Source of the DNA: Klebsiella phage ZCKP1
Sequence record: MH252123.1
DNA: 64,000 nt
Reading direction: 5' to 3' (one strand)
The notes beneath the pieces were generated by a model. The model was not told where the DNA came from. It saw only the letters and a program-made list of their open reading frames with translations, and ran no database searches. Below are positions 5,742 to 64,000 of the stretch, piece by piece. Each line of letters starts with the position of its first letter. Positions within the stretch are counted from its first letter, which is position 1. The position numbers and the translations under genes are program-made.

Positions 5742-7228
5742 TGGACGAATATGGTTTGACAGATGCGGGATTTGTAATCCCGACTTTTGATGATGTTTTA
5801 AACAACTACATGACAGCAGTAAAAAACACATTTGGTGCAGATGCAGCCACTTCGGAAGATACTGTGATCGGACAACTGTTTAGAATAATTGCATACACAG
5901 ATTACACATTGTGGGAAGGTATGCAAGGGGTTTATAATACTCAAACACTGGATGGTGCAGAAGGTATTTATCTTGATGAAATCTTTTCTAAACGTGGTTT
6001 CTATCGAGCAGGGGCGGCAGCAAGTACAGGTTATGCATATGTTAAAAGTAATAACAAAGCAGCTTGGACTTACGAGTTAGGCACAGATATTTACTTCAAC
6101 TCTGATAGCGATATGAACTACTATGTTAGCACACCAACTATGTTGAATGCTAAGATTGCAGCTTATCAAATTTCTCGTGCTAATGCAACTGCTACAGGTG
6201 TTCCAAATATTACCTTTTATGCACAAAGTGCGATAGATGGAGGACTAAACAGTAAAACACTTGCACCTGGTTCTTCTACATTTATAGCCGATCTTGAAAC
6301 TTTTATCAAGGCAAACTTAACAGAGGCTGATCGTAGTCTTGTATTTTCTGATTCTGGTAACTTGTCAATTGGTTTTACTTCTTTAACCAGTGATACTCCA
6401 GTGGGACTAGTAACTCCTATCAAATTTTATGCTAGTGTTCCAGTTGGAACCAAATGGAGTGAAATTCCGGTAGTTGCAGCAGAGAAAGGATACAATCCGG
6501 TGGGTGTGGAGTCTATTACAGGGATATCTTCTACCTTTACAGGTTATCTTGATAGTGGTAACTTCTATTCGTTTTCTCCTGGTCGAGATGTTGAGACAGA
6601 TGCAGAATTCCGCTCTCGTTTCAATGACAACGTTGATGAAGCTAACGCAGGGACACGAGCAGCTATTGTGAAAGCACTGTTGCTTACCGATGGTGTTACC
6701 AAGGTGAAGATTTATGATAACCCTACGTTACATGATCAAGAACACGCTCCAGCTATGACTTTCCAGACTATAGTTTATGGAGGGAGTGCTGAAGAAGTTG
6801 CTGAAGTTATTTACAAAACTAAACCAATCAACAGTTTGACACATGGAACAACCAACATAACTGTTACAACAGAAGACGGAGGACAAGAAATTATTCGTTT
6901 TTCTCCTGGTGCTTCTGCTACGTATTCCGTAAAACTTGTTTATCAAACTGTCAACGGAACAACTTTAAGTGGAACAGAAAAACAAAACATTGTAGAAGCT
7001 TTACAAAACCTGCAAGCTTACTTTGAATTAGGTTCTTCAGTAACGAACGATCAAATCAAAGGTGTTATTTATGCAGCACTTGCTTTTGGACGCTTGACTT
7101 CTCTTCGTGTTTATGTTAAACTTAATACTGAGGATGACAGTAAATATACAGAGAATAATATAGTTCCTGCTTATAATGTTGTCCCTTCTTTTGACCTTGA
7201 TAATATTTCTTACGAGTATGGAGTGTAA
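5741..7228 (+). CDS. baseplate protein (Baseplate J-like, putative)
   Basis: 495 aa. It is the first gene of a J-I-H-G-like order (baseplate, small baseplate, tail fibre, Tfa). Confidence 0.45.
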   Translation: MDEYGLTDAGFVIPTFDDVLNNYMTAVKNTFGADAATSEDTVIGQLFRIIAYTDYTLWEGMQGVYNTQTLDGAEGIYLDEIFSKRGFYRAGAAASTGYAYVKSNNKAAWTYELGTDIYFNSDSDMNYYVSTPTMLNAKIAAYQISRANATATGVPNITFYAQSAIDGGLNSKTLAPGSSTFIADLETFIKANLTEADRSLVFSDSGNLSIGFTSLTSDTPVGLVTPIKFYASVPVGTKWSEIPVVAAEKGYNPVGVESITGISSTFTGYLDSGNFYSFSPGRDVETDAEFRSRFNDNVDEANAGTRAAIVKALLLTDGVTKVKIYDNPTLHDQEHAPAMTFQTIVYGGSAEEVAEVIYKTKPINSLTHGTTNITVTTEDGGQEIIRFSPGASATYSVKLVYQTVNGTTLSGTEKQNIVEALQNLQAYFELGSSVTNDQIKGVIYAALAFGRLTSLRVYVKLNTEDDSKYTENNIVPAYNVVPSFDLDNISYEYGV

Positions 7229-7230
7229 AA

Positions 7231-7860
7231 ATGGCAGTGAGTGTTGACCATGTAACAACTTGGGCCAGTATCAATGAAGATGTTAAAAACCTTCTGATTG
7301 AAGATTTTAAATCTTCTCCTAACATTGTCAAGCTCCTCTACATCGTATCCAGTGAAAAGCAAAAGATAGATCAGGCAATGATCTATCTTGCTAAACACCG
7401 CTTGATCTCTACAGCCACAGGCAAATACCTAGATATTCTAGGGGAAGAAATGGGGATCGAACGTAATGGCTCTGATGATGAAGAGTATAGAACAATATTA
7501 AAAATCAGGGCTTACCGCGTAGCCTCCTCTGGGACTCGTGGTGACATAATTGATATCTTCGCCCGTTTCACAGGAACAGAGCGTGAAACGCTTAATACTT
7601 ACGTAGGTTTGAATAAAACCTTTGATGTGTTTTTCTACAACCTGTGTCTTCAATCTGATCAAGCTTTAGAGCAGTTGCTAAGTGTTTTCCCTATTATTAG
7701 TAGCTACCGTCTTGGAGCAAAAGCAGGATCAGCTTTTGGTTTTAGTTCTTATTATGCTACCAAACCGCCTCATGGTATTGGTGGTTTAGGTTCCCTGTAC
7801 ATGGAATCTACTGGGGATGAAACAGGACGCATGTGTACGCTTCTCAAGCAAATAGATTAA
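7231..7860 (+). CDS. baseplate/tail protein (gpI-like, putative)
   Basis: 209 aa. Its position between the J-like protein and the tail fibre gene supports the call. Confidence 0.4.
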   Translation: MAVSVDHVTTWASINEDVKNLLIEDFKSSPNIVKLLYIVSSEKQKIDQAMIYLAKHRLISTATGKYLDILGEEMGIERNGSDDEEYRTILKIRAYRVASSGTRGDIIDIFARFTGTERETLNTYVGLNKTFDVFFYNLCLQSDQALEQLLSVFPIISSYRLGAKAGSAFGFSSYYATKPPHGIGGLGSLYMESTGDETGRMCTLLKQID

Positions 7861-7869
7861 GGAGTTTAA

Positions 7870-8931
7870 ATGGCGAAGCCAATATATTATCCTGACTGGG
7901 CTACACAAACTGTAACGCTCCCAGGAACTTTAAACACAAACAAAATTAGACCTAAAGAAACCATCCGCACAGTTGGTATGGATTATGGTCAAATCATGAC
8001 TTGCGAAGAAATGAACTGGATTCTTAATAATATCGGTTTATGGATTCGCTATTTGGTGGATGACTTTCTTCCAACTTTACCTGATACTTACTTGCCTTTA
8101 GTTGGAACTAAGATTACAATGGCAGGTGATGCTACTGGTGAGGCTACTTGGAACGGTGATAAAGAAGTTATTTTATCTATCCAAGTTCAAGATAATAGTC
8201 ATAATCACTTGTCGGCAAACATTACAGATGCTACTAGTTCAATAGTAACACCAAATGTGTTGGTAAAACGTGATGCAGGTGGTGCTATTTATGGTGGTGA
8301 TGTTTATGTTAATGGTACTTCCACAACAGATCCTGCAACCCTGTTTTTCAAGAACTTTGCAGGACAGACTAATGGTGAGATTTCTGCCGAATACCAAAGT
8401 GGAGGTCAGCTTTATATTTATCGTAGAAATCCTAGCACAGGTAGTGTAGCCGCAGGTGTTCGTTTATATGATGCAGGTTATGTTCTAATAGACAATCCAA
8501 GATCAAACAATGGACAAGACACTTCTAACGGAAATGCCTTGGTTCGCTTAGATTATCTGAATTCTCGTTTGACTTCTCTTCAGAACACATTGCAAACGAA
8601 TATTAATACTGTTCAAAACAACCTGAATAGTGTTAACAGCAACCTCTCTTCCCGTATAAACAATGTAGAAAGTAATCATCAAAGTCAGATTACAAATAAC
8701 TACAACTATGCTAATGGAACCTTTGTAAGAGATATTCGTTACACTAGCCAAGGTGTGTATTATCCACCAGGGAACGAAGTTTCTTGGACTTATATCTGTT
8801 CTTCTGGTTATGTTCTTTCTGGTATTATTGTTCAGGAAACAGGTCGTAGTTCTGCGGATAACATTGGTGGGGTTTACTTCAAACGCCTCCAGCGCAACGT
8901 TAACGGAAACTGGTACGATATTGGAGGCTAA
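7870..8931 (+). CDS. tail fibre protein
   Basis: 353 aa with an Asn/Ser/Thr-rich coiled-coil-like segment (NSRLTSLQNTLQTNINTVQNNLNSV). It is directly followed by a Tfa chaperone gene. Confidence 0.65.
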   Translation: MAKPIYYPDWATQTVTLPGTLNTNKIRPKETIRTVGMDYGQIMTCEEMNWILNNIGLWIRYLVDDFLPTLPDTYLPLVGTKITMAGDATGEATWNGDKEVILSIQVQDNSHNHLSANITDATSSIVTPNVLVKRDAGGAIYGGDVYVNGTSTTDPATLFFKNFAGQTNGEISAEYQSGGQLYIYRRNPSTGSVAAGVRLYDAGYVLIDNPRSNNGQDTSNGNALVRLDYLNSRLTSLQNTLQTNINTVQNNLNSVNSNLSSRINNVESNHQSQITNNYNYANGTFVRDIRYTSQGVYYPPGNEVSWTYICSSGYVLSGIIVQETGRSSADNIGGVYFKRLQRNVNGNWYDIGG

Positions 8932-9486: not shown

Positions 9487-9822
9487 ATGGAATTTCAAGA
9501 AGCATGGGGACTTGCAAAGGATGCAATCATCCCTTTAATCGGAGTCATCTGGTTCTTTTTCAAACAAAAAATGGATAAATTCGGCTCTGATCTTGAGGAA
9601 ATGGAGGAGAAAAGTCGAGAGCTAGAGAAGAAGTTGGTCTTTGTTGAATCAACTTATGCAACTAAAGCCGAACTTACCCAGATGCTAAATCAAATTAACT
9701 CTACATTAATGGCAAATAATAACACTCTTGAGCAAAAGATTGAAAAGATTATGGACCTCAAGAATGCTACTATTCAAATGATGCTAGATGACATAGTTAA
9801 ACGTACACAGAATAAGGGGTAA
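9487..9822 (+). CDS. hypothetical membrane-anchored coiled-coil protein
   Basis: 111 aa with an N-terminal TM segment (IIPLIGVIWFFF) followed by a charged helical region. Confidence 0.4.
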   Translation: MEFQEAWGLAKDAIIPLIGVIWFFFKQKMDKFGSDLEEMEEKSRELEKKLVFVESTYATKAELTQMLNQINSTLMANNNTLEQKIEKIMDLKNATIQMMLDDIVKRTQNKG

Positions 9823-9825
9823 TTA

Positions 9826-12800
9826 ATGGCAACATTCCCAACGTATCCAGCAACGTCTCTTGAACAGGGCGTAGATCTGGTTATTTTCTCGTCCAATCAA
9901 CTTCATGATGTTATTAATGGAAGTGCGACAGAAAGTATTGAGACAGAATCAGGGTTGATACCAACCCTGAGAAAAGCCCTTGTTGATAACTTTTTCTTTA
10001 AAAGCCCATTGGATTGGGCGCAAGGCACAAATGAAACGGTTTTTAACCAACTACGTTATTTTCAGAATGGGGTATTGAGCGGTTATTATTATGCTCCTAA
10101 TGCTACATTGGTAAACCCAATCCCTATGCAAGGTACTCCAGTAGGAGATAACAACTGGGTATTGTGGGGACTGAAGACAGAACAATTGGCAACAGAAGTC
10201 ACACCTTGGGTATATTCTGGTGCAACTGGTTATGAAACAGTAATCAGTCCTCCTTACATCTTTGATAGTGCTATTGTTACAATCAATGGTGTTATTCAGG
10301 TTCTGGGAGAAGCTTTCCGCATAGAAGATAGTAAAATCATTTTATCTGAACCTTTGGGACATGATCCTGCAACAGGACTGCCAAACAAGCTTTTTGCCTA
10401 TATTGGTAAAATCGTAGCTTCCGCAGATACAGATCCTAACTTAGAAAACCGTCTTGTCAGTTTAGAAACAAAAACTGAAGAACTGACAGAAAGCATGGAT
10501 AAAGTACCTTTACAAACTATTGCTCGTAAATACGGTTTGTTGGATGATGAAGTAGCTTACGCAACAGCGGGTCAATCATTAACAGGGATTAAAGCTCTGT
10601 ATGATCCGGTAGCACAATCTTCCTACACATTGCCTCCTAACATCACAGGGACTTTAACATCTTTGTCTGTTTCTGGAGTAATGACTTATTCTGGCGGATC
10701 TGTAGACCTTTCTGCATTAGCTGTTGAACGTGGACAGTTTGTTCATTTGCCTACAAGCTTTGGTAATAACGTAACTCTGACAGCTAAAAATCAGACGATT
10801 GGGCGTGGTGCTGGTCGCTATCGTTGGGCGGGGAGTTTACCAAAAAGTATTTTAGCTTCTGATACATTGGAAACAAGTGGTGGATTAGGTCCAAATGCAT
10901 GGGTTCTAACTAATACAGAAGGACTGTTAACCCCTCGTGGTGGAACATACAACGATTTATTCGATGTTGTCTACTTGTCAGAATTTGCTAACAATACAAC
11001 TACCTATGCCACACCAGAAGCAGCTTTCCAGGCGGCACTGTTAGCAGCAAAAGCTTCGAAAAGTAAGATTCTCGACGCTTACGGTTGTGATATGACTTTC
11101 ACGACAAGCTCTTTTGATATTCAAGATATCACTTTGCGTGGGGGTGTGTTCCGTGGTCAACGCGACTATCGTGTGCAAAATGCTACAGTAGAAGGCACAA
11201 CTTTCCGTAACTCTCGTGTTATGTATTGGGGTGGTGCTGTGCGCATGTTCGATTGTTTGTGGGACGGTGCTCCTCGCGCAGGTCAAGTTGGTAGCTTGGT
11301 ATTCCAAGGCAACCCAATATCAGGTACTTTTGAAATTGATAATTGTACTTTTAAAAATGGGTTATATGGCATCCTTCAACAAGGAACAGGGGAACCAGTA
11401 ACACGCGGTGTCTTCCGTAACCTTACCTTCATGGACATGCAAGGTGATGCAATAGAACTGAACGTCATCAATAAACATTACGATGATGGTTGTGTGATTG
11501 AGAATATTTACCTGTCTAATATCGATGGGACTAACGCTCCTATTCCTCTGTCCAACTGGGGTATCGGTATCGGTGTAGCTGGTAAAGGACCGTATGGTTA
11601 CGGAATCCCTGATGATCAATATTGCAAGAATATTACAATTCGTAACGTTTTTGCAAAACGTTGTCGTCAGATTGTCCACGTAGAAGTTGGTCGTAATATT
11701 TCTATCGAAAACATTCATGGCGATCCAGATCAAACTGTATCTGTTGGGACAGGTTTGGCAACTGGCGCAGTTGTAATGTATGGAAGTAAAGATTTTACGA
11801 TTGATGGTGTTTACGGAGAGCCTAAAACAGACGGTAGCACACTTGCAAGTAATATCCGTATGATTTATTTGGAGTGGGGAACTAACGCAGTTCTGGACGA
11901 AGAGGGCAATCCGGTAGTTCCGGCACAGGGCAGACCTTCAAACCCATGCTTTAACTATTCTGTTCGTAACATTCACACCAAAACTGGGCGTGTTTTTGCA
12001 GGAGTTTCCGCTGGGCCAGGTTATGAAAACAGAGTCAGCTTTGAGAATATCCGTTGTGCTGCGTTGCAGTTGTTCGGTGTAGCTTCTTGGCTTTCAATGT
12101 CTAACATCACCTGTAATATCTTTGATTGTGTTGGTCAACCTGAATCTGGTCCAGGGACATTTTATGATGGATTCTTCCGTAGAGAAAAATCTGTTCTTGA
12201 GATGGTTAACGTAAACTGTTACCCAGATGGCAAGACTATGGTTACTGGTCGCCCACAGTGGAGCCGTTGCCGTTACTCTGATATTCATCGTGTCAACTGT
12301 AATGTTGAAGCTAATATGTATACCAATATCGCAGGTGGTATTGGAGCTATTGTAGGGACAACTGGCAAAGTTTATTACTTAGAGCCTAACCCTAGCCGAA
12401 ACATTGATGGGATGCATTTCCCAACAGGGAAGGAGTTTGACAAAGGGGATATGATAGTCAAAGCGGATAATACGTTCTTCCTTGTAACAACAAGTGGGGC
12501 ATACATTCCAGATATCCCAGCTTTCGGTATTCGAGCTACACAAGCAGGAGATACCTTCCTGACACAGAACTTGACTCCTAATGGGACAGCAACAAACGCT
12601 TCTTGGTTGTATCACTATCCTCTGTCAGCAGGAACACGTATTCGTATTCCTGGTGCTGGTGTAGGTGGAGCAGATTTGGACACAGTTATTACTCGTGCAC
12701 CTTATCAAGATAATGATACGTGGACTAACCCAGTTAAAATAGACATTGCAGATCCAATTGTAACGCCTACGAGTGCTGGAGTTAGAATCAAAACCATACC

Positions 12801-12943: not shown

Positions 12944-14968
12944 ATGAATTTAACAAGACCTAATAGTGCGATAGCCGATCTAGTAGAAGCTACTTATCGA
13001 AAACGTCGCAGTTTTGAGGCAGGTTTTACATTACGTAATTCCCGTGAAGTTTTGCTGTTAGCGGCAGAAGGGAATTATTACCAATGGAAAGGAACTTTTC
13101 CTAAAGTAGTTCCAGCAAACTCTACGCCAGCCACCACAGGTGGTATTTCTTCCCTTGCATGGCAAAGTGTTGGGACCGCTGATGATATAGCAATTATCAA
13201 TGCCAAGTTTACGGCAATGCAGCAACAGATTGATGATCTGTCGGAAACAATACCTGAAGCTGGTAAATCGGCTTATCAGATCGCACTTGATAATGGTTTT
13301 GTTGGAACAGAAGCACAATGGCTTGCTTCTTTGAAAGGGGATACTGGTGCTCAACTTAATATTAAAGGATCATTAGCAAGCACTAGTGAACTACCATCCA
13401 CAGGTAACGTTGCAGGGGATGGTTATATCGTAGGTGATGTAATCTACGCTTGGGATGGTTCTGTTTGGAAACTTATTTCTTCTCTTGGACCAGAAGGGAA
13501 ATCAGCTTATGAGTTATGGTTGGCAGATGGTAATACAGGATCTGTTTATGATTTTCTTACCTCTATAAAAGGTGATAAAGGTGATGTTGGTCCTACAGGG
13601 CCACAGGGAGCACCTGGTGTTAACGCCAACGGTTTTGATTATCGTGGGGATTTGCCTTCTACAAGTAACTTACCACAACCTAACTCTGAAAACGTAAGCC
13701 AAGCTTATTCTATCAATGGTAATCTTTATGTCTCTAACGGGACAGCTTGGGTCAACATGGGTAATATTGTTGGTCCTCAAGGTCCACAAGGTGAGGCAGG
13801 TAAAGACGGTCTTGATGGAACAGATGGAGATGAAGGGAAATCTGCATATCAAAGTTGGCTGGATGCTGGTAATGAAGGGACAGAAGTAGATTTTATTGCC
13901 TCACTTAAAGGTCCAAAAGGAGACAAGGGTGATCAAGGAGAGCGAGGTCCACAAGGTGAACTAGGTCCACAAGGACCAGTGGGTGCAACAGGATCAGGCT
14001 TAGAGGTTATCGGGGTTCTGAACAGTGAAGCTGAACTTCCTCCTACTGGAGAAGTAGGCGATGCATATAAAATTAATAATGATTTGTATGTTTGGGTTCA
14101 AGATGCTACAGAATGGATGAATGTTGGCAGTCTTGGAGGAACATCAATTACAGCCAAAGGTCATGTTCCGAACAGCGAGGCTCTCCCTGTTTATAATAAC
14201 TATGGTGATGCCTACTTAACTGAGGACACTAGTAATCTTTACATCTATACCTACGATCAAGACACCAACTCCGCATCTTTTGTTGACATGGGAAGTATTA
14301 AAGGTGACAAAGGTGAAAAAGGGGATAAAGGAGATAAGGGCGATCCTGGAACAAACGGAACCAACGGTACTGATGGAACCAACGGCAAGGACGGCGCACA
14401 GTGGTTTGTAGCAACAACTAATCCAGTCACAGGGGATGGTGTTATCAATGATTACGCCTTCAATACTACCACTGGGGCAGTGTTTAAGAAAACAGATTCT
14501 TCTACGTGGACACTTATAGGAACTCTTCCTAGTATACCAGAAGCCCCTCAAGACGGCTTGACGTATGGTCGTTCTGATGGAAACTGGATCGAAATATCAG
14601 GATCAGATCCTACGGAAGCTATAACACCAACTAGAGTTACAGCAGGTTTCATGGAACTTGAAACAACCACTGCCAACTCTGGAGCATCTTGGACTCCTTC
14701 TGGAACTTCCAATATGTATGTTGTTACAGTAACTGATGCTTTGACAGTTGGAGCATGGCCTGGTGTTACTGGCTCTACAAAACCTAAAGCGTTTTCAGCA
14801 ATGATTTATTTGATTCAAGATACAACGGGACACACGGTTACACTAGATGCGTCTTATGGAGCACTAAATGATACAGAAATAGCAACTACTGCTAACGCAG
14901 TAACAATTTTGCAATTAACGTATCCTGGTGTGGGTGATATCGTGGACATGGTTGTTGTAACACGATAA
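12944..14968 (+). CDS. collagen-like tail fibre protein
   Basis: 674 aa with several Gly-X-Y triplet runs (GDKGDVGPTGPQGAPG, GPKGDKGDQGERGPQGELGPQGPVGATG, GDKGEKGDKGDKGDPGTNGTNGTDGTNGKDG). It shares the N-terminal FPKVVPANSTPATTGGI motif with the ORF at 2301. Confidence 0.75.
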   Translation: MNLTRPNSAIADLVEATYRKRRSFEAGFTLRNSREVLLLAAEGNYYQWKGTFPKVVPANSTPATTGGISSLAWQSVGTADDIAIINAKFTAMQQQIDDLSETIPEAGKSAYQIALDNGFVGTEAQWLASLKGDTGAQLNIKGSLASTSELPSTGNVAGDGYIVGDVIYAWDGSVWKLISSLGPEGKSAYELWLADGNTGSVYDFLTSIKGDKGDVGPTGPQGAPGVNANGFDYRGDLPSTSNLPQPNSENVSQAYSINGNLYVSNGTAWVNMGNIVGPQGPQGEAGKDGLDGTDGDEGKSAYQSWLDAGNEGTEVDFIASLKGPKGDKGDQGERGPQGELGPQGPVGATGSGLEVIGVLNSEAELPPTGEVGDAYKINNDLYVWVQDATEWMNVGSLGGTSITAKGHVPNSEALPVYNNYGDAYLTEDTSNLYIYTYDQDTNSASFVDMGSIKGDKGEKGDKGDKGDPGTNGTNGTDGTNGKDGAQWFVATTNPVTGDGVINDYAFNTTTGAVFKKTDSSTWTLIGTLPSIPEAPQDGLTYGRSDGNWIEISGSDPTEAITPTRVTAGFMELETTTANSGASWTPSGTSNMYVVTVTDALTVGAWPGVTGSTKPKAFSAMIYLIQDTTGHTVTLDASYGALNDTEIATTANAVTILQLTYPGVGDIVDMVVVTR

Positions 14969-38563: not shown

Positions 38564-38579
38564 AAGTCTCTCCTATAAA

Positions 38580-38598
38580 ATAGCCTCCCGAAGGAGGC
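38580..38598 (-). terminator. rho-independent terminator downstream of terC
   Basis: On the - strand AGCCTCC ttcg GGAGGCT is followed by ATTTTATAGG. Confidence 0.5.
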
Positions 38599-38605
38599 TC
38601 ATCTA

Positions 38606-39580
38606 TTAAACAGCAGCTTCTTCTTTTTCAGGGAAGATAAAGCTTGCAATAACACCAAGAGCTAATGTGCCTAGAACAATCATCAGACTTACGTTAGGGG
38701 AAATATCATGCGGGAGGAATGACCACTTGGCATGAAGTGTTTCACCGAACGGGTGATACATAAGTTTAGCACCGACAAATACCAGAACCACAGCAACAGC
38801 CTTCTCTAAGTGAACCAGATATTTCACAGCCACACTTAACACAAAGAAAAGTGCACGTAAACCAAGAACAGCCATCAGCATTGCAGAATAAACTAGCAGA
38901 GGTTCTTGTGTCACACCGATCACAGCCGGAACTGAATCAAAAGAGAAGACAATATCTGTAAGCTCAATAACAAACACACAAAGAAGAGCAGGAGTTGCAT
39001 ATTTAATACCATTCTTAATGGTGATGAACTTTTCACCATCCAGTGCATTGTGCACAGGCAGAACTTTACCTACTAAACGAACAGCCCAATGTTTAGAGTA
39101 ATCAATATCCTCTTCTTCGTCACCACCTTTGATGATAGCCACGGCAGACCAAGCTACAATCAAACCGAACAACACTTGGACCGACCAATGAAGGTTAAAC
39201 AAAGCGGTCCCTGCTGCAACAAAAATACCTCGGAAGACAATGGCTCCTGCAATCCCCCAAAGTAAAATCTTATGTTGGAGATGTGTGCTCTTAATTCCAA
39301 AGCTTGCAAAAATTGCCATGAACACCATCAGGTTATCTACAGAAAGACTTTTTTCCAACACATAGCCACTTAGGAAAAGCGCGGCAAACTCTTTACCATG
39401 TTCTACCCAAATGAATGCGTAATATCCTAAAGCTAAAGCAATCCAAAAAACAGACCAAAGCAAAGCAGATTTAATTCCAATTTCTTTATTCTCTTTATGA
39501 CCAAAGAAATCGATACCAATAGACAATGCCAAAATACCAACTAAAACAACTACATCAATAATTGGGAAACCGAGTTGCAT
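38606..39580 (-). CDS. terC: TerC-family integral membrane protein
   Basis: 324 aa with about 9 TM helices and the TerC motif (DIVFSFDSVPAVIGVT). Confidence 0.7.
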   Translation of the reverse strand: MQLGFPIIDVVVLVGILALSIGIDFFGHKENKEIGIKSALLWSVFWIALALGYYAFIWVEHGKEFAALFLSGYVLEKSLSVDNLMVFMAIFASFGIKSTHLQHKILLWGIAGAIVFRGIFVAAGTALFNLHWSVQVLFGLIVAWSAVAIIKGGDEEEDIDYSKHWAVRLVGKVLPVHNALDGEKFITIKNGIKYATPALLCVFVIELTDIVFSFDSVPAVIGVTQEPLLVYSAMLMAVLGLRALFFVLSVAVKYLVHLEKAVAVVLVFVGAKLMYHPFGETLHAKWSFLPHDISPNVSLMIVLGTLALGVIASFIFPEKEEAAV

Positions 39581-39597
39581 TCTTTTCTCCTCTCTTT

Positions 39598-39659
39598 GCG
39601 GGGGAACTATTCCCCCCGCTTCATGTGATATATCTTACTCTTTTTAAGAACTATGTCAA
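39598..39659 (-). promoter_or_regulatory. early-type promoter (TTGACA-16-TAAGAT) plus 5' stem-loop module driving terC
   Basis: The - strand reads TTGACAtagttcttaaaaagagTAAGATatatcacatgaaGCGGGGGGaatagttCCCCCGCaaagagAGGAGaaaagaATG. This is the same module found before the early genes at 61.7-63.7 kb. Confidence 0.55.
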
Positions 39660-39662
39660 CAC

Positions 39663-39884
39663 TTATTTTGTTGAATGAGAGGAAAAGATTCCTCGTAATA
39701 CCGCCAAAATAAACGAAACACAAACCACGGTCCAGAAGGTTACTGGGACAGTGATATCTGCATGACCCATAACTTCAGCAACATAGTTGTAAGCCAGCAA
39801 CAGTAACCAAGCTGGAATCAAACTAAGCATAAAAGCAATAACAAAAAAGCTTACCACTGCAACAATACCTGCAAAAACACCCAT
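39663..39884 (-). CDS. small membrane protein (2-3 TM)
   Basis: 73 aa and very hydrophobic. Confidence 0.45.
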   Translation of the reverse strand: MGVFAGIVAVVSFFVIAFMLSLIPAWLLLLAYNYVAEVMGHADITVPVTFWTVVCVSFILAVLRGIFSSHSTK

Positions 39885-47218: not shown

Positions 47219-48811
47219 TTAACGATCCTCTCTGATTTGATTAATCTTACGAGCAAGGGCAGCTATAAGCTTATCTTCTTCAGATACAGGAGCCGTGCTC
47301 TTACCTAAACGATGCATGTCTAGAATCTCTTGAACAGTCCGGTTCCATTGTAGACATTTAATACAACGTGTATGTGCAACATACAGAAGATTTCGTTCTG
47401 ATTCTTCAAGACCTACCCACTCACCCTTCTTATCATAATTAGAAGGAAAGTCATTTGCAACAATAACCTGATCCCATTCCAAACCTTTTGATTTGTGGGC
47501 TGTAGTTAAAGTAACTTTAGCCGTTGGAGAGTTACGGTGCATACGTAAAGTGTATGCAATATTATTAGCTTTACCAGAAACAACAATGTTTAAAAGTCGT
47601 TTTGCATCAGGATCTGATTCTGCACACTCTACAAATTCTTCCCAAGAAGTGTAAGGGAGAACTGTCTCATGCTTAACTTTGTCCAAATCACCTCTACGTA
47701 AAGCATTAACACTATCAACCATAGAAATGAAATCTTTGGTATCTACGTTAATAATAATCTCTTCTCCGTTAGCGATTCGGTCCATAGCTTCGAGCAACAG
47801 AGTCAAATTCTTACGGAAAATAATGGTGTAAGGTTTACTATAATCTACCACATCAGAATGAAAACTTCCAGTGACAGTATCATAACCTTTGCCTACCAGC
47901 GGATGCTTCAGAGGTGAACGATCAGAAAGGATCGCATTAGCAATGTCCGCAACTTTAGGACCAAAGCGAAAACAAGCTGTCAGAGGCAACTCAACCCCAT
48001 ATGTAGCCGTTTGCTTCATCATGTTCTGGCTTCCACGGAACTGATAAATACTCTGAAATTCATCACCCACAACAACAATACGTTTAGCCGATTTAGCATT
48101 GCGAAGGATAGACAGGAATGCAGGGTTAACATCCTGGAATTCATCTCCAAAAATAATATCGTATCCTAGATCTTCTTTGCTCAATTCAAAGAGTTTCACA
48201 TAGGTGTCATGAGTCATAATGGTTTCTGATTTAGGATCAATACGCTCACGCCAAAGTTGCTTCGCATATTTAACAACTTCGTTAATAAGTTTTTGTTCGT
48301 TGATGTTCTTACGTTTAAGATCTGACATATGCACTTTAGGAAAATGTTTATGTCCAATATGTTCATCGTCAGAAAACTCATATTTAGCTAAAGTTTGTTT
48401 TACCATTAACCCGATCATTGCACGAGTCAGTAGCACTTTACCATTCTTATCGATCAAGTTTTGAATCTTGAATTTTTTGGCAATCTCGCTACCAGTTCCA
48501 GCTACGTTAACATATTGACCTTCTGGACGAGACAATTTGTGTCGAAGGTTTTGTGGAAGACGCTGGTAACAGATTGAATGTAGCGTTCGGCACATAACAT
48601 TAGGCGGCATTTTACGTCGAGCTTCCTCTGCCATACTTTTGTTAAATGCCAAATATAGAATACTATCATTTGTGCCATTAGCCAACATATACAGTGTTGA
48701 CGTTTTACCTGATCCAGATTTAGCTTGAATTGTAACGAAACGATTTTCTTTATACCCGCTTTCAATAGCATATTGTTCATCAGTAGGTGTAAAACTCAAT
48801 TGTGTAGACAC
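47219..48811 (-). CDS. SF1 DNA helicase (Dda/RecD-like)
   Basis: Walker A (AKSGSGKTST), a DExx box (VVVGDEFQ) and a C-terminal motif (TTAHKSKGLEWDQVIV). Confidence 0.8.
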   Translation of the reverse strand: MSTQLSFTPTDEQYAIESGYKENRFVTIQAKSGSGKTSTLYMLANGTNDSILYLAFNKSMAEEARRKMPPNVMCRTLHSICYQRLPQNLRHKLSRPEGQYVNVAGTGSEIAKKFKIQNLIDKNGKVLLTRAMIGLMVKQTLAKYEFSDDEHIGHKHFPKVHMSDLKRKNINEQKLINEVVKYAKQLWRERIDPKSETIMTHDTYVKLFELSKEDLGYDIIFGDEFQDVNPAFLSILRNAKSAKRIVVVGDEFQSIYQFRGSQNMMKQTATYGVELPLTACFRFGPKVADIANAILSDRSPLKHPLVGKGYDTVTGSFHSDVVDYSKPYTIIFRKNLTLLLEAMDRIANGEEIIINVDTKDFISMVDSVNALRRGDLDKVKHETVLPYTSWEEFVECAESDPDAKRLLNIVVSGKANNIAYTLRMHRNSPTAKVTLTTAHKSKGLEWDQVIVANDFPSNYDKKGEWVGLEESERNLLYVAHTRCIKCLQWNRTVQEILDMHRLGKSTAPVSEEDKLIAALARKINQIREDR

Positions 48812-59686: not shown

Positions 59687-60215
59687 CGAATATGTATTCT
59701 TCTTTTCACATAAAGATGTGTTTAGTAATTGGTATATTGCACCCTTTACAGAAACCGAACCAGGTTACAATCAGACATTTAATTGTGTCGAACAATACAT
59801 GATGTGGCGTAAAGCTTTGCTTTTTAATGATCACAACACTGCACAGGCTATTCTGACTCATAGTTTGATACGGAAAGATGAGAAGATCCAAGCTTATTAC
59901 AAACGTATGGGTAGGGCAGTGTCGGATTTTGATAACAACGTATGGGAAGAGAACCGTGAGCGTATTGTTATGCGAGGTTTATGCTTGAAATATGTACAGA
60001 ATCCAGATTTGTATGCAGACTTACACCTTTACCAATACAAAACGTTTGTTGAAGCAAGTCCTTACGATAAGGTTTACGGTATTGGAATGGGAATGTATGA
60101 ACCAGGGGTGCTAAATCCGGTCAACTGGAAAGGGCAGAATCTTTTAGGCAAATATCATAACAAACTGATCGAAATACTTTTCCCAGACAAAATACCGCAA
60201 AGACGATATTTGTGA
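59673..60215 (+). CDS. NADAR (YbiA/DUF1768) domain protein
   Basis: FFSHKDVFSNWYIAPFTETE...FNCVEQYMMWRKALLFND matches the NADAR signature (F-FSNF...F...EQ..M..KA..F.D). Confidence 0.65.
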   Translation: MRITDEYVFFFSHKDVFSNWYIAPFTETEPGYNQTFNCVEQYMMWRKALLFNDHNTAQAILTHSLIRKDEKIQAYYKRMGRAVSDFDNNVWEENRERIVMRGLCLKYVQNPDLYADLHLYQYKTFVEASPYDKVYGIGMGMYEPGVLNPVNWKGQNLLGKYHNKLIEILFPDKIPQRRYL

Positions 60216-60306: not shown

Positions 60307-60457
60307 TCCTATACAAACCCTTGTCTTTTTCAGTTTGCATCACTAGGATTCGATCTGAGTGGGTTCCTGAAGGTCTGCCAATAAGATTAAAGGTTATCTC
60401 AAATTCCCATTACCTATTATCTCAAAAATCCCTCAAATTATTTAAACTTTTTAAGAA

Positions 60458-60644
60458 TTTACAAAAGTGAAAGTTGAAAACCAAAATTTAAAGTTTAGGA
60501 AAATTATCTTAAAATGTCAGATACAAAACAAAACTCAAAAGTCAAGGAAAATTTTAAAAATTTTGCGCGCCCACAGTATTTAAAGTTTTTTTGCTTTTAC
60601 AAAAATGAAAGTACAAAAGCAAAATTTAAAGTTTACAAAAATTT
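60458..60644. repeat. two about 48-bp AT-rich direct repeats (60458-60505 and 60597-60644) plus short TATCTCAAA repeats upstream
   Basis: tttacaaaagtgaaagttgaaaaccaaaatttaaagtttaggaaaatt versus tttacaaaaatgaaagtacaaaagcaaaatttaaagtttacaaaaatt, about 40/48 identical. Confidence 0.6.
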
Positions 60645-60655
60645 ATGCAGATGGG

Positions 60656-60762
60656 AATGAGAAGAGTTCTCATATGGAAATGCAAATGATAATGATTCGC
60701 ATTTAGGTTTATAAATGAGATTGATTCTTATTTGATAAGGTAAATGATAATCATTCTCATTT
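60656..60762. promoter_or_regulatory. array of four about 20-bp palindromic operator-like sites, Fur-box-like
   Basis: The sites are AATGAGAAGAGTTCTCATAT (60656), AATGATAATGATTCGCATTT (60685), AATGAGATTGATTCTTATTT (60713) and AATGATAATCATTCTCATTT (60743). They are spaced 28-30 bp apart. The last is a near-consensus Fur box (GATAATGATAATCATTATC). Confidence 0.5.
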
Positions 60763-60994
60763 AGAAAATGACGCGCAGGGGCGGTGTTTGTCTCGCGCTC
60801 CCGTGTCCCCTCGCCATGTAATAAGAATAACAGATCCAGCCAGGAAAGCAAGCGATTATTTTATCTTTACATTTCTTTACAAATATATAGCGCCCAGCCT
60901 ACCGGCGATCAACCTTCCAACCAGTGCCCCTGGTATGTTAGCCCCGCCTTTACGCCGTGGGGTGGCGCTTCCTCTTCTGTATGTAAAACAGTAT

Positions 60995-61034
60995 AAGCCC
61001 GATCCCTGGGCTTGTCAAGATTATTTTTTGTTTT
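60995..61034. terminator. stem-loop plus T-tract (candidate bidirectional terminator)
   Basis: AAGCCC gatccct GGGCTT followed by gtcaagaTTATTTTTTGTTTT. Confidence 0.4.
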
Positions 61035-61287
61035 CTTGCCAGGATAGGACACCTAACCAAAAATACATATCGCCCCGCGCCCCTGGTGGGATCTTGCTTT
61101 CCCCGCCGCCACTGCAAGCCCATAGATAACCATTTGCGAACGTATCAAAATGATCTATCTCTTCCACCTTATGATCGCCCAGGTTGAGAACGGTTTCAAC
61201 CTTTAAGCCCGTTGCGCTTGCTACCTGGTGCACCGTGCCGCCTTGCCAGCCCAATGAGTGCATAAGGTGTAATGTAGTATTTGTCAT
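61021..61287 (-). CDS. hypothetical protein (88 aa) in GC-rich island
   Basis: ORF with RBS AAAGGGCG. Candidate promoter on the - strand is TTGCTA-17-TATCAT at about 61335-61365. Its GC content is much higher than the phage average. Confidence 0.35.
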   Translation of the reverse strand: MTNTTLHLMHSLGWQGGTVHQVASATGLKVETVLNLGDHKVEEIDHFDTFANGYLWACSGGGESKIPPGARGDMYFWLGVLSWQENKK

Positions 61288-61396
61288 GGTATCGCCCTTT
61301 CTTTGATGTGCGCCCTGGTTGGCGCGGTAGAAAGATGATAGCCCTTTCTTTTATATATAGCAAGCAAAAAGAAAATAAAAAAGATTGAAAAAGTGG

Positions 61397-61425
61397 TTGA
61401 CGTTCCTCACCTGGTAGCGTAGTAT
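61397..61425 (+). promoter_or_regulatory. sigma70 promoter (TTGACG-17-TAGTAT) with A/T-rich UP-like element upstream
   Basis: It is followed by a leader of about 130 nt before the ATG at 61561. Confidence 0.5.
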
Positions 61426-61560
61426 TCATCTTGTCGAGGGGGGCGCGGCACAACGACAATAAACAACAGGAGGGCGCAATGTAGGACGGGCAAAGGTGAG
61501 GATCTCCATAATCCACCGTCCACCAACAAAAAACATCATTCATCACCTGGAGTTAAAATC

Positions 61561-61758
61561 ATGGCAACATTGCACATAGTAGCGAAAGCAGGACAAATCA
61601 GCGTCGTGGTAAACGGTTTTACTGAGTTCAGTCATCCCCAGGATGATCATGAAACGGTTTTATCTTTTATTGATTCCTTGTTAGAAATGGGAGTCATTAC
61701 AGAAGACCAGCACGCTACAAAATGCAAGCGCGTTAATCAAATTGCAGGGATAGAATAA
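61561..61758 (+). CDS. early small protein
   Basis: 65 aa, RBS GGAG. Confidence 0.45.
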   Translation: MATLHIVAKAGQISVVVNGFTEFSHPQDDHETVLSFIDSLLEMGVITEDQHATKCKRVNQIAGIE

Positions 61759-61764
61759 AAAGTA

Positions 61765-61823
61765 TTGACAACAAACAACAACCTGATAAGATGTATCACA
61801 TAGGGCGGGAAGTGGTTTCCCGC
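61765..61823 (+). promoter_or_regulatory. early promoter module P1 (TTGACA-16-TGaTAAGAT, then conserved TATCACATAGGGCGG and a stem-loop)
   Basis: -35 at 61765-70 and extended -10 at 61784-92. The hairpin GGGCGGGAAgtggTTTCCCGC lies at 61803-61823. Confidence 0.6.
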
Positions 61824-61848
61824 TCGTAACAGAAGAGAGATTATCATC

Positions 61849-62121
61849 ATGGCATCATATAGCGCAACAATGATCGTAGCTGGCACAACTGGTAAACCTA
61901 TGAGCGGTGGCGGATCTTTCGCTAATATCAATATTGACGGGCGTTTATCCCTGGACGCAGCGATCGCCATTGCACGGGAAACATTTAAGAAAGAATGTAA
62001 TTTCAACAAGCAAGATTATCTCGGTTTCGCTATTGAAAAAACCGCGCGCTTTGTTGATTATAAAAGCCCGAAAATGGTTGACACTACATTAAAAGCGCAA
62101 GATGTAGCGTTTTTGCTTTAA
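61849..62121 (+). CDS. early small protein
   Basis: 90 aa, RBS AGAAGAGAG. Confidence 0.45.
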   Translation: MASYSATMIVAGTTGKPMSGGGSFANINIDGRLSLDAAIAIARETFKKECNFNKQDYLGFAIEKTARFVDYKSPKMVDTTLKAQDVAFLL

Positions 62122-62124
62122 GGC

Positions 62125-62180
62125 TTGACATTAACGAATAATTTGTTAATATGTTACATAAAGCGGGAATAGTTCCCGCT
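62125..62180 (+). promoter_or_regulatory. early promoter module P2 (TTGACA-16-TAATAT plus stem-loop AGCGGGAAtagTTCCCGCT)
   Basis: -35 at 62125-30 and -10 at 62147-52. The hairpin lies at 62162-62180. Confidence 0.55.
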
Positions 62181-62197
62181 GTTTGTAAGGTGGTAGA

Positions 62198-62455
62198 ATG
62201 TTTTACATCAAATTAAAAGGTCACGTGATCGCGTTCAAAGATAACGCTTTTTACAGATTAGCAAAATATGCGTTAATACATCCCCACTATGTTTATATAA
62301 GGGGGCGTGATGAAATAAATATCTTTGATCAAACAACATGCGAAAACATCGAGATCCGCAAGGTTGGCGTACGTGATTATCGTACATCTTTCTACCCTTG
62401 CAAGGATTCAGCAAGTCTTTTTAAAGTATGCCAATTGTTGAAAAAAGGTGGTTAA
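62198..62455 (+). CDS. early small protein
   Basis: 85 aa, RBS AAGGTGG. Confidence 0.45.
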   Translation: MFYIKLKGHVIAFKDNAFYRLAKYALIHPHYVYIRGRDEINIFDQTTCENIEIRKVGVRDYRTSFYPCKDSASLFKVCQLLKKGG

Positions 62456-62456
62456 T

Positions 62457-63014
62457 ATGGGCCGCGAATATGTGATCCAGTCTTGGGTAAAACACGAAGC
62501 AGATGATCCGCGCATCATTCCCGATCATCTTATCGATGAATCCACGGGATATAGCGGTGAGCAAATAGGTAACAGATCAGCACGTAGTAACGGCAACGTA
62601 AAAGCGCGCTATGTGCGCCCTGGTTGGCTGGCAAATGGTAACGCTGATTTATCCAGCGCGGGAGATCCTAGCGACGGCGCGAAAGATAATCCCTTGTACA
62701 AAGTTGATCCGGCTTTTCGTGTCCTGGATGAATACCCCAGCAAGATAGCGGCGCTTGATGAAGCTCTGGAAAGTAAGCGCATCACCTGGACCGCTTACAA
62801 CATGGCAAAAAACGTACTTGATGGTAAGCTGATCCAGGCTGAAAGAAAATTAGCCAAAATTGCAGCCATAGCCCAGGAGGAAGACGAGGAGACAACGGAA
62901 GAGGAAGAGTACGAAGAGATCCCGCCGTTGTTGTGTGTTGATGCTTTTCCTGATTATCAGCCGACAGAGGAAGAAAAAAGGATCGCGCTAGAAAACTTTG
63001 AAAATAGTCTTTGA
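62457..63014 (+). CDS. early protein with strongly acidic C-terminal region
   Basis: Start at ATG 62457 with RBS AAGGTGG. It ends in a poly-Glu/Asp tail (EEDEETTEEEEYEE). Confidence 0.45.
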   Translation: MGREYVIQSWVKHEADDPRIIPDHLIDESTGYSGEQIGNRSARSNGNVKARYVRPGWLANGNADLSSAGDPSDGAKDNPLYKVDPAFRVLDEYPSKIAALDEALESKRITWTAYNMAKNVLDGKLIQAERKLAKIAAIAQEEDEETTEEEEYEEIPPLLCVDAFPDYQPTEEEKRIALENFENSL

Positions 63015-63069
63015 CATATCGCCGCCACTGGCATAATATTTACCACGTAGGGCGGCAATGGTGCCGCTC
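63011..63069 (+). promoter_or_regulatory. early promoter module P3 (TTGACA-17-TAATAT plus TTACCACGTAGGGCGG and a stem-loop)
   Basis: -35 at 63011-16 and -10 at 63034-39. The hairpin GGGCGGCAatggtGCCGCTC lies at 63050-63069. Confidence 0.55.
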
Positions 63070-63097
63070 ATAGTGAAATTATGCAAGAGGTTTACAA

Positions 63098-63193
63098 TGA
63101 TTAATAAAGAAAATAGCTTGACGGTTGGAACGATTAACGCTATCATTTTCGCCGTTCCATTTTGGGTTGTAGTAGCGGCTATTATTTTCTAAA
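63098..63193 (+). CDS. small membrane peptide (31 aa)
   Basis: ATG with RBS AGAGG. It has a hydrophobic segment (AIIFAVPFWVVVAAIIF). Confidence 0.3.
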
Positions 63194-63201
63194 AAATATT
63201 C

Positions 63202-63262
63202 TTGACAACGTTTTTTAATCTGATAAGATGTATCACATAGGGCGGCGGAATACTTCCCCGCC
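63202..63262 (+). promoter_or_regulatory. early promoter module P4 (TTGACA-16-TGaTAAGAT plus TATCACATAGGGCGG and a stem-loop)
   Basis: Nearly identical to P1. The hairpin GGCGGCGGAAtacTTCCCCGCC lies at 63241-63262. Confidence 0.6.
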
Positions 63263-63283
63263 AAAACAAAAAAGGGTAACACA

Positions 63284-63646
63284 ATGAGCAAGCAAATCAA
63301 TACTATCATGTTTAATCTGGTATCTTTCCGCGATGATATGAAAAATTTACCACGTGAAACGGTTGATATTCATGTTTCAGCTTATCGCGCCCTTATTGAT
63401 ATGTTACCGCTAAAACGTGATCAACATGCCGCTAATATGATGCTTAATGCTATGCTTAAAAAGATGATTCAAACGGATCTTACCCTGGCATATGAGTATC
63501 AAGGGCGCTTATATGCAACTTACAACAGAGCGGTACCTGGTCTGGGAAGTACTGAAGAGTTGCACGGCTTAAACCTGGATCAAAACACTTGGGATAGTAT
63601 GCGCCGCGTTATGGTATGGGCCGAAAGCGGTAAAATTTACGAATAA
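63284..63646 (+). CDS. early small protein
   Basis: 120 aa, RBS AAGGG. Confidence 0.45.
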   Translation: MSKQINTIMFNLVSFRDDMKNLPRETVDIHVSAYRALIDMLPLKRDQHAANMMLNAMLKKMIQTDLTLAYEYQGRLYATYNRAVPGLGSTEELHGLNLDQNTWDSMRRVMVWAESGKIYE

Positions 63647-63652
63647 AAACGG

Positions 63653-63712
63653 TTGACACTGTTTAAAATTCTAGTATAGTTTACCACATAGGGCGGGAAA
63701 TGGTTTCCCGCC
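63653..63712 (+). promoter_or_regulatory. early promoter module P5 (TTGACA-16-TATAGT plus TTACCACATAGGGCGG and a stem-loop)
   Basis: The hairpin GGGCGGGAAatggTTTCCCGCC lies at 63691-63712. Confidence 0.6.
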
Positions 63713-63734
63713 AACAATGAAAAAGGTTATCATC

Positions 63735-64000
63735 ATGGCTATTAATATTAATGTTTCCTCTTATGCTACCCTGGCTAACACGGCTAAAATTGAATTATCC
63801 AGCATTGAGGCGGTGCATATTAGCGCCCGTCGCTGGTTCCAACAGTCCTACGGTAATACATATTTTTCTTTAATGGTTGACGTTGAGATCGGCGGTAAAC
63901 TGATCGAGGTGGTTAACGTTCCGTTTCAATATGGCTATGGTGATCATTTTGATACCGTCGCCCTGGAAGAGTTTAGCAAGGTTATCAACCTGGAGGGCAA
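63735..64000 (+). CDS. early small protein (3' end truncated by the window)
   Basis: ATG with RBS AAAAAGG. The frame is open to the window end. Confidence 0.4.
   Translation, partial: MAININVSSYATLANTAKIELSSIEAVHISARRWFQQSYGNTYFSLMVDVEIGGKLIEVVNVPFQYGYGDHFDTVALEEFSKVINLEG

Follow-up and report, generated by a model that had tools for sequence, protein, structure and literature searches.

Probable promoter-early stem-loop cassettes in front of small array genes and terC in a phAPEC8-like phage

Background

The T4-like phages phi1 and RB49 carry repeated elements known as promoter-early stem-loops (PeSLs), which have since been reported in PST/T4 and nt-1/KVP40 as well (Arbiol et al. 2010, PMC2839356; Comeau et al. 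2014, PMC4122927). In T4-like phages, PeSLs mediate modular shuffling and form mini-circles, which are encapsidated (PMC2839356). Here we analyze a repeated promoter-hairpin element found in 64,000 nucleotides of Klebsiella phage ZCKP1 (sequence record MH252123.1), a stretch referred to below as the window. A preliminary description had reported five such elements on the + strand (P1 to P5) and one on the - strand before terC, and had proposed that they define a co-regulated early regulon. All six sites were located as claimed, and we propose that they are probably modular PeSL-type early-gene expression cassettes. In the literature that we searched, there is no description of promoter-hairpin cassettes, or of such cassettes as recombination joints, outside T4-like phages.

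Every sequence-level hallmark of the T4-like PeSLs was found at this locus: a repeated intergenic motif of about 70-100 bp, comprising an A/T-rich tract, a consensus sigma70 promoter, a GC-rich stem-loop, a Shine-Dalgarno (SD) sequence and an ATG; a concentration in a hyperplastic region (here an array) before small ORFans, with few copies elsewhere; and a position at the joints of insertions, deletions and replacements between close relatives. On this basis we classify the feature as PeSL-type cassettes in Stephanstirmvirinae, elements of which are already partly annotated in phage phAPEC8. There are several differences. The lineage is another one, Stephanstirmvirinae as opposed to T4-like. 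The stem-loop is near-fixed in position and inside the predicted transcript, whereas phi1 has five positional subclasses, mostly between or over the -35 and -10. The hairpins lack a U-tract and stand alongside canonical terminators; in phi1, terminator activity was seen by reporter assay only. Finally, crossovers fall in the hairpin block, whereas the A/T-rich tract was proposed for phi1.

Two other descriptions come close. In Certrevirus and rV5-like phages, conserved sigma70-like early promoters cluster before short open reading frames (ORFs) (PMC7344957; PMC3606486). These share with our cassettes an UP element with consensus -35 and -10, a region of short hypothetical genes, and an occurrence in large virulent myophages without their own RNA polymerase; in the text searched, however, the promoter alone is described, and no downstream hairpin or shuffling role turned up. 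In the phAPEC8 record (JX561091), the sigma70 half of some copies is annotated as 'putative host dependent promoter determined with MEME' and the block GTAGGGCGGCAATGGTGCCG as 'putative promoter determined with PHIRE'. The two halves are thus annotated apart and only for some copies, and the hairpin is named a promoter, not a stem-loop or a recombination joint; we suggest that the annotation be corrected, the 'PHIRE promoters' being hairpins.

Anatomy of the cassettes

The six sites share the architecture previously claimed for them: TTGACA, which is perfect at all six, a spacer of 16 bp (17 bp at P3 alone) and a -10 hexamer that reads TAAGAT at P1, P4 and terC, TAATAT at P2 and P3, and TATAGT at P5. 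An extended TG had been listed for P1 and P4 and is indeed present there, but the list was incomplete, as P2 has it too. The downstream block CACATAGGGCGG, presented as conserved, is exact at three sites and carries one mismatch at P3, while P2 and terC have variants of it, ACATAAAGCGGG and ACATGAAGCGGG (as 12-mers, AAAGCGGG and GAAGCGGG). Taken alone, the 12-mer CACATAGGGCGG is weak evidence, with five matches at no more than two mismatches against 1.6 expected; because of this poor discrimination, copy counts were made with a profile of the whole cassette (nhmmer). The profile finds exactly these six sites in the 64 kb, with E-values from 4e-9 to 3e-16. An independent repeat finder recovered the same 29-nucleotide (nt) family, in which P4 (63217-63245) and P1 (61780-61808) are 97% identical.

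Cassette P1 (61756-61848, + strand; profile E = 8e-16) lies upstream of a 90-amino-acid (aa) ORFan (61849-62121). It starts with an A-tract (61756-61764), followed by the -35 (61765-61770), the TG (61784-85) and the -10 (61787-61792); candidate starts are A61798 and A61800, and the hairpin spans 61803-61825 (-15.5 kcal/mol, z -3.0). P2 (62119-62197, + strand; E = 1e-10) would drive two ORFans of 85 aa (62198-62455) and 185 aa (62457-63014), with its -35 at 62125-62130, its -10 at 62147-62152, the variant block ACATAAAGCGGG and a hairpin at 62162-62180 (-14.6 kcal/mol, z -3.2). P3 (63006-63096, + strand; E = 7e-14) precedes a 31-aa ORF (63097-63192); its -10 is at 63034-63039, and its hairpin (63050-63069, -15.1 kcal/mol) contains one G.U pair. 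The TGA stop codon of the upstream gene sits within the P3 -35 hexamer itself (T-TGA-CA, 63011-63016). P4 (63190-63283, + strand; E = 6e-14), with a -35 at 63202-63207, a -10 at 63224-63229 and a hairpin with one bulged C (63241-63262, -14.0 kcal/mol), is predicted to drive a 120-aa ORF (63284-63646), whose orthologue is labelled 'membrane protein' in related records. P5 (63644-63734, + strand; E = 3e-16) has its -35 at 63653-63658, its -10 at 63675-63680 and its hairpin at 63692-63712 (-15.4 kcal/mol, z -3.2); its putative target starts at 63735 and runs past the end of the window. The terC cassette (39581-39665, - strand; E = 4e-9) has its -35 at 39659-39654, its -10 at 39637-39632, the variant block ACATGAAGCGGGG and the most stable hairpin (39619-39598, -18.0 kcal/mol, z -4.6). 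Those genes behind the array cassettes of the window that we examined are ORFans of unknown function.

Cassette anatomy was quantified on 90 non-identical cassettes out of seven arrays. Information peaks in four places, namely an A-run preceding the -35, the -35 itself, TAnnnT and TAGGGCGG (1.0-1.5 bits); the discriminator is moderately conserved, and the -35/-10 spacer holds nearly no information (about 0.1-0.3 bits per position). Conservation therefore does extend beyond the RNA polymerase contacts, as had been noted. The block takes the form ..CAC(A/G)TAGGGCGG, followed by the hairpin, an unpaired purine-rich leader, the SD and the ATG. The hairpin starts 10-11 nt past the -10 in 46 of the 90 cassettes and within 7-12 nt in most. 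We infer that the usual transcription start lies about 6-8 nt after the -10, in a pyrimidine-purine context provided by the conserved CACA, so that the transcript would begin A(C)AUA and enter the stem.

At all six sites of the window, the block is followed by a single GC-rich hairpin of 8-9 bp with a free energy of -14 to -18 kcal/mol and a z-score of -1.9 to -4.6 relative to shuffled sequences. The sequence thus bears out the proposed layout, with a hairpin in the initial transcribed region downstream of a strong sigma70-type promoter. Folds from the presumed start to the ATG leave the remaining leader, including the SD, unpaired in every window copy. The hairpin had been placed 20-40 nt upstream of the ribosome-binding site, which holds when counting from the hairpin start but not from its 3' end: the latter is 17-27 nt from the ATG, hence roughly 7-15 nt from the SD.

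One array plus terC

The 2.5 kb around P1-P5 are 96-98% identical to dozens of Phapecoctavirus genomes. By this similarity the window belongs to a Phapecoctavirus, that is, a phAPEC8-like virulent Escherichia coli myophage of the subfamily Stephanstirmvirinae, with genomes of about 150 kb. Related or near-identical genomes have been deposited under other hosts as well: Acinetobacter vB_AbaM_ABPW7 (99% in the terC region), Campylobacter A150, A147 and A140, Serratia KKP_3264 and Pseudomonas PsgM04F. A number of these host assignments look questionable given the coliphage-like genomes.

The window covers 64 kb and its right end falls inside the array, so that it contains only the array's edge. 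As a genome proxy we used phage anhysbys (MN850648), a complete relative of 149 kb that is about 96% identical over the array stretch. The profile search finds 21 cassettes in anhysbys: 20 on the + strand at 44.4-53.5 kb and one on the - strand before terC, with no further cassette elsewhere in the 149 kb on either strand. The motif TAGGGCGG occurs 14 times in this genome, on one strand only and always within the 9-kb array. The genome-wide search that had been suggested as a check thus yields a non-random group that includes terC, and not a scatter of chance matches. The array consists of about 28 tiny genes separated by gaps of 75-92 bp, and nearly all of these gaps consist of one cassette. 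The window stops inside the array, which makes P1-P5 the first five of its cassettes.

Three array spacers hold a hairpin without a promoter, and one cassette has its stem around the -10 (anhysbys 48019-48094). Other stem positions and cassette types were seen in the rV5-like phage FV3, where several cassettes have a stem around the -35. A second FV3 type, TTTTTAGATGGCCTTGACTCCAGGGCCATCAATAAAGTAAACT (2202-2283, 2823-2912, 3157-3234 and 6542-6628 of the retrieved stretch), has a stem-loop that encloses the -35, a PeSL subclass common in phi1. The embedding of a stop codon in the -35 also recurs in FV3, at 7744-7750 of the retrieved stretch, the intergenic space being fully used. Outside these groups, the jumbo phage Asteriusvirus UE-S1 displays the same design with its own consensus, TATAATGTTTTACATCAAGGGGAG..CTCCCC.

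The terC gene (38606-39580, - strand) encodes 324 aa, with a match to Pfam PF03741 TerC (E = 3e-40) and to PHROG 7180, and, outside the array, is the sole gene driven by a cassette. Directly behind it comes a terminator-like hairpin with a U-rich tail (38575-38599, - strand), AGCCTCC-TTCG-GGAGGCT then ATTTTAT, which we read directly from the sequence, the region after terC having been left out of the terminator pattern scan. This hairpin is kept in Justusliebigvirus muut and Klebsiella phage phi1_175008. With a cassette on one side and a terminator-like hairpin on the other, terC would form a self-contained transcription unit within a long leftward gene block.

The hairpin as an RNA structure

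The leaders of terC provide an orthologous series in which the hairpin can be followed across six phages: the window phage, REC, PsgM04F, muut, phi1_175008 and Citrobacter phage Tr1. At 71-99% identity, these leaders keep the hairpin at the same distance from the promoter, with differing arms: GCGGGGGGA/UUCCCCCGC, GCGGAGGA/UCCUCCGC, AAGAGGGGG/CUCCCUCUU and AAGGGAGAG/CUCUCCCUU. The arm pairs were taken from individual folds, since the MAFFT alignment of the six leaders is not structure-aware and misplaces the arms. They include double compensatory changes, for example from A-U to G-C and from G-C to A-U between AAGAGGGGG/CUCCCUCUU and AAGGGAGAG/CUCUCCCUU. None of the six window hairpins is followed by a U-tract, and none was among the terminator-like calls of the pattern scan. 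Combined with the fixed distance from the -10 and the compensatory changes at terC, this points to a 5'-proximal RNA structure, and not a terminator, as the most likely identity of the hairpin.

The hairpin might nonetheless terminate or attenuate transcripts arriving from upstream cassettes, in which case a gene's own promoter would account for most of its expression. PeSL stem-loops were originally understood in this way: when placed between a promoter and lacZ, a phi1 PeSL stem-loop cut expression as much as rrnB T1 (PMC2839356), and the promoter-less hairpins of our array would fit the same role. We regard it as unlikely here. The tails of the six window hairpins are A- and purine-rich (CGUAACAG, GUUUGUAA, AUAGUGAA, AAAACAAA, AACAAUGA, AAAGAGAG), whereas canonical U-tract terminators (for example, GGGCGCACCAAGCGCCCTTTCTTTTT) are used in the same array at places where an end of transcription is evidently called for, and one follows terC. 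Furthermore, the hairpin lies downstream of its own start, so that an efficient terminator would abort its own transcript, and termination would not require a fixed spacing from the -10.

The inverted repeat and TAGGGCGG may also be viewed as a protein-binding site on DNA, either an operator through which a phage or host regulator shuts off early promoters or a phage-specific promoter. The repeat is symmetric and spans positions from about +4 to +25, at which binding of a dimer would obstruct promoter escape; its consensus is lineage-specific (GGGCGGCAATGGTGCCGCC here, GGGGAGAAATGGTTCTCCCC in Asteriusvirus UE-S1); and the PHIRE annotation of the phAPEC8 record implies a phage-specific promoter. 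Against this, pairing is kept in the hairpins of the terC orthologues even though the arms vary in sequence and length and the loop varies in length (3-5 nt), which speaks against the sequence-specific operator that the preliminary description had listed among its candidates. The seven arrays contain 47 distinct hairpin sequences, of which 24 fold better in the sense than in the antisense orientation, 10 fold worse and 13 equally well, and wherever a G.U pair occurs the G is on the 5' arm (17/17). The fixed position and these strand asymmetries make a structured sense transcript more plausible than an operator in double-stranded DNA. As to a phage-specific promoter, the annotations of the relatives that we examined contain no gene for a phage RNA polymerase. 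Altogether a DNA site appears quite improbable.

Other candidates for the hairpin were tried and set aside. An RNase III site takes double-stranded RNA of roughly 20 bp, or some two helical turns; stems of 8-9 bp are too short for it, and RNase III processing, an earlier suggestion, was rejected. A CsrA-type loop motif was rejected because the loops have no conserved GGA, and so was a sigma-dependent pause or a put-like antitermination RNA, as there is no -10-like repeat and no two-hairpin structure. Within 60500-64000, Rfam 15 yields no covariance-model match at E-values up to 1.

A parallel is found in the 5' stabilisers of the E. coli ompA and papA leaders, in which a stable hairpin close to the 5' end of the mRNA is likewise followed by an unstructured, ribosome-accessible leader. 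For these elements to protect, the 5' end must have fewer than about 2-3 unpaired nucleotides (Emory, Bouvet and Belasco 1992, as cited in PMC3997798, with the substrate rules in PMC8833179): RppH and RNase E need at least two and prefer at least three (PMC8833179). The tail predicted here, 3-5 nt from the likeliest starts, differs in being longer, so that a 5' stabiliser, also among the earlier suggestions, is only marginally consistent with it, and a strict 5'-terminal stabiliser role is uncertain.

Gene shuffling at the cassettes

The array is strongly mosaic: of 280 related records, just 18 span 80% or more of it without interruption. We inspected joints one by one. Between anhysbys and the related phage P3322 (about 96% identical) there are six gene-sized insertions or deletions (indels), four of which cross over within a GC hairpin. 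In two of the four, this is the cassette block GTAGGGCGG and its hairpin: one within a shared GTAGGGCGGCAATGGTGCCGC, where one genome has a single cassette and the other two cassettes flanking a gene, and the second in TATTTATCACGTAGGGCG. The other two are in a promoter-less hairpin spacer and in a terminator hairpin. The remaining two of the six crossovers used short homologies beside an ATG. When all pairs of the seven arrays are considered, 14 of 15 distinct crossover homologies (3-70 bp) correspond to cassette or hairpin sequence.

At the site of P5, phages DE16, P3322 and EP57 have an additional gene of 180 bp that comes with a cassette of its own. The modules of the window are permuted in Justusliebigvirus inny and KKP_3264, the 31-aa gene of P3 standing before the P1 gene and the P4 gene after it. 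The joints there are chimeric cassettes: one combines the P4 promoter and its own spacer with the P1 leader, the other the P2 promoter with the P4 leader. The switch point lies in the block common to P1 and P4 (97% identity). A last case involves another subfamily: at a place occupied by other genes in rV5_ev158, FV3 has a module of two genes with phAPEC8-type cassettes, the left boundary of which is at the -35. The two genes, ORF161 and ORF162 (7744-8469, versus 3135-3845 in rV5_ev158, coordinates of the retrieved stretches), are the only ones in the stretch not annotated as rV5-similar. This looks like an inter-subfamily transfer of a cassette-flanked module.

Since the joints of gene-sized indels, replacements and permutations lie inside cassettes, in many cases within the hairpin block, the conservation of the block among paralogous copies also reflects recombination.

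Some observations hint at exchange beyond these groups. The cassette downstream of the extra 180-bp gene (DE16 13405-13520 and P3322 13404-13520 of the retrieved stretches) is of a different style, ACTATTGACAATGAGTGATAGTATAAGCATAATAACTTTTATC, which resembles cassettes of Asteriusvirus UE-S1 (for example, 9656-9738 and 12415-12498 of the retrieved stretch) and may indicate exchange between unrelated groups. Single array genes match Asteriusvirus phages at 79-89% nucleotide identity.

We may hypothesize that the hairpin block is a dedicated recombination site, recognized by structure in the manner of an integron attC, at which a phage enzyme, and not general homologous recombination, excises and re-inserts mini-circles. 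Crossovers do occur in hairpins lacking a promoter (a terminator hairpin and the spacer GGGGCGGCAACGCCCC), the hairpin is where chimeric cassettes are joined, cassette-flanked modules are found in another subfamily, and PeSL mini-circles have been physically detected in phi1/RB49 (PMC2839356). Yet the crossover segments are the sole sequence shared by the flanks (3-70 bp), which ordinary short-homology recombination can explain, and other joints lie away from the hairpin, at the A-tract/-35 or the ATG. No recombinase has been linked to the hairpins, although no search for one was made, and the fixed position relative to the promoter is left unexplained. Such a site thus seems to us very doubtful. 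Extended into a gene-cassette system common to large virulent coliphages, the idea would have the GC hairpin block act as an attC-like, structure-recognized exchange site in Stephanstirmvirinae and Vequintavirinae, possibly in Asteriusvirus too, with small early genes for host takeover or anti-defence traveling as promoter-carrying mini-circles that are re-inserted at any other hairpin; we would hold this unlikely.

It is highly improbable that the downstream block has no function beyond the promoter and is a remnant of recent promoter-region duplication, as the near-identity of P1 and P4 over 29 nt and the closer resemblance of paralogous copies within a genome than of orthologous terC leaders across genera might suggest: spacers and leaders are unconserved among copies while block and pairing are conserved, the downstream genes are unrelated, the hairpin persists in place at 71-75% nucleotide identity with compensatory changes, and the same design occurs with a different sequence in Asteriusvirus.

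A model for the cassettes

In the PeSL-type reading, the unit of about 80-90 bp occupies the entire intergenic gap. Its A-rich UP-like tract and near-consensus sigma70 promoter would be read by unmodified host RNA polymerase early in infection; promoter activity, early timing (already assumed in the preliminary description), the start site and the role of the hairpin in RNA are all deduced from sequence, which itself directly shows the anatomy, the distribution over the genome, the conservation of structure and the chimeric joints. Transcription would start in the conserved CA(C)A(T) context, about 7-8 nt past the -10, and the GC-rich hairpin would form in the transcript 3-5 nt from its 5' end, followed by the unstructured purine-rich leader with SD and ATG. 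Each small gene of the array, as well as terC, would thus be supplied with its own strong promoter and a standard 5' untranslated region (UTR). Protection or insulation of the mRNA is the most likely role of the hairpin, which may impede 5'-end-dependent decay, leave the ribosome-binding site accessible regardless of the downstream gene and, in read-through transcripts, serve as a barrier to 3' exonucleases. Because the same 20-70 bp block recurs between unrelated genes, the cassettes would double as crossover points, allowing deletion, insertion, replacement and permutation of modules that bear their own expression signals, and recombination would in turn homogenize the hairpin block among paralogous cassettes.

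Several points weigh against this interpretation. A predicted unpaired tail of 3-5 nt is long enough for RppH and RNase E, so that protection of the 5' end would be partial at best. The promoter-less hairpins in three array spacers indicate that the role of the hairpin is not solely at the 5' end. The folding advantage of the sense strand is modest (Wilcoxon p = 0.03, computed with sequences that are related). As regards recombination, intergenic breakpoints are expected anyway, as only indels that spare genes survive; and as unrelated genes share no homology other than the cassette blocks, recombination at these blocks may be a side effect and not a selected function. A pooled count placed 253 of 593 alignment ends in cassettes against 99 expected, but the pairs are non-independent and the count is confounded by selection for intact genes; it was superseded by the joint-by-joint inspection above. 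Finally, the searched literature holds no transcriptomes or start-site maps for Phapecoctavirus, Vequintavirus or rV5-like phages; the use and timing of the promoters and their start sites are predictions.

If correct, the model explains the organization and exchange of many small early genes in widely isolated coliphages that are therapeutic candidates; such genes form a class often suspected to include host-takeover and anti-defence functions. As each gene would travel with a strong promoter and a standard leader, a gene swapped at a cassette would be immediately expressed. The PeSL idea, which in the searched papers concerns T4-like phages only, would be extended to a second subfamily, with the same design in rV5-like phages and an Asteriusvirus jumbo phage. 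The cassettes are also compact natural promoter and 5' UTR parts for engineering, and offer a concrete, testable system for the role of a 5'-proximal hairpin in phage mRNAs.

The region upstream of the array

An AT-rich non-coding stretch upstream of the array (60434-60764) contains iteron-like repeats: two 72-nt copies that are 82% identical (60434-60505 and 60572-60643) and three tandem 29-nt units (60656-60764). It lies between a rightward gene block ending near 60215 and a divergent promoter region, and is a possible replication origin or regulatory region; in the anhysbys record, a repeat_region is annotated close by.

The divergent promoter region (61288-61560) contains a predicted TTGACG-17-TAGTAT promoter (61397-61425), followed by a leader of about 135 nt, partly GC-rich, and by the first array gene (61561-61758). 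The standard cassette hairpin is absent from 61288-61560; in EP57 and phiWec188 the array starts with a normal cassette bearing a GGCAATGGTGCC-type hairpin. An 88-aa gene (61287-61021) extends leftward from the divergent promoter region.

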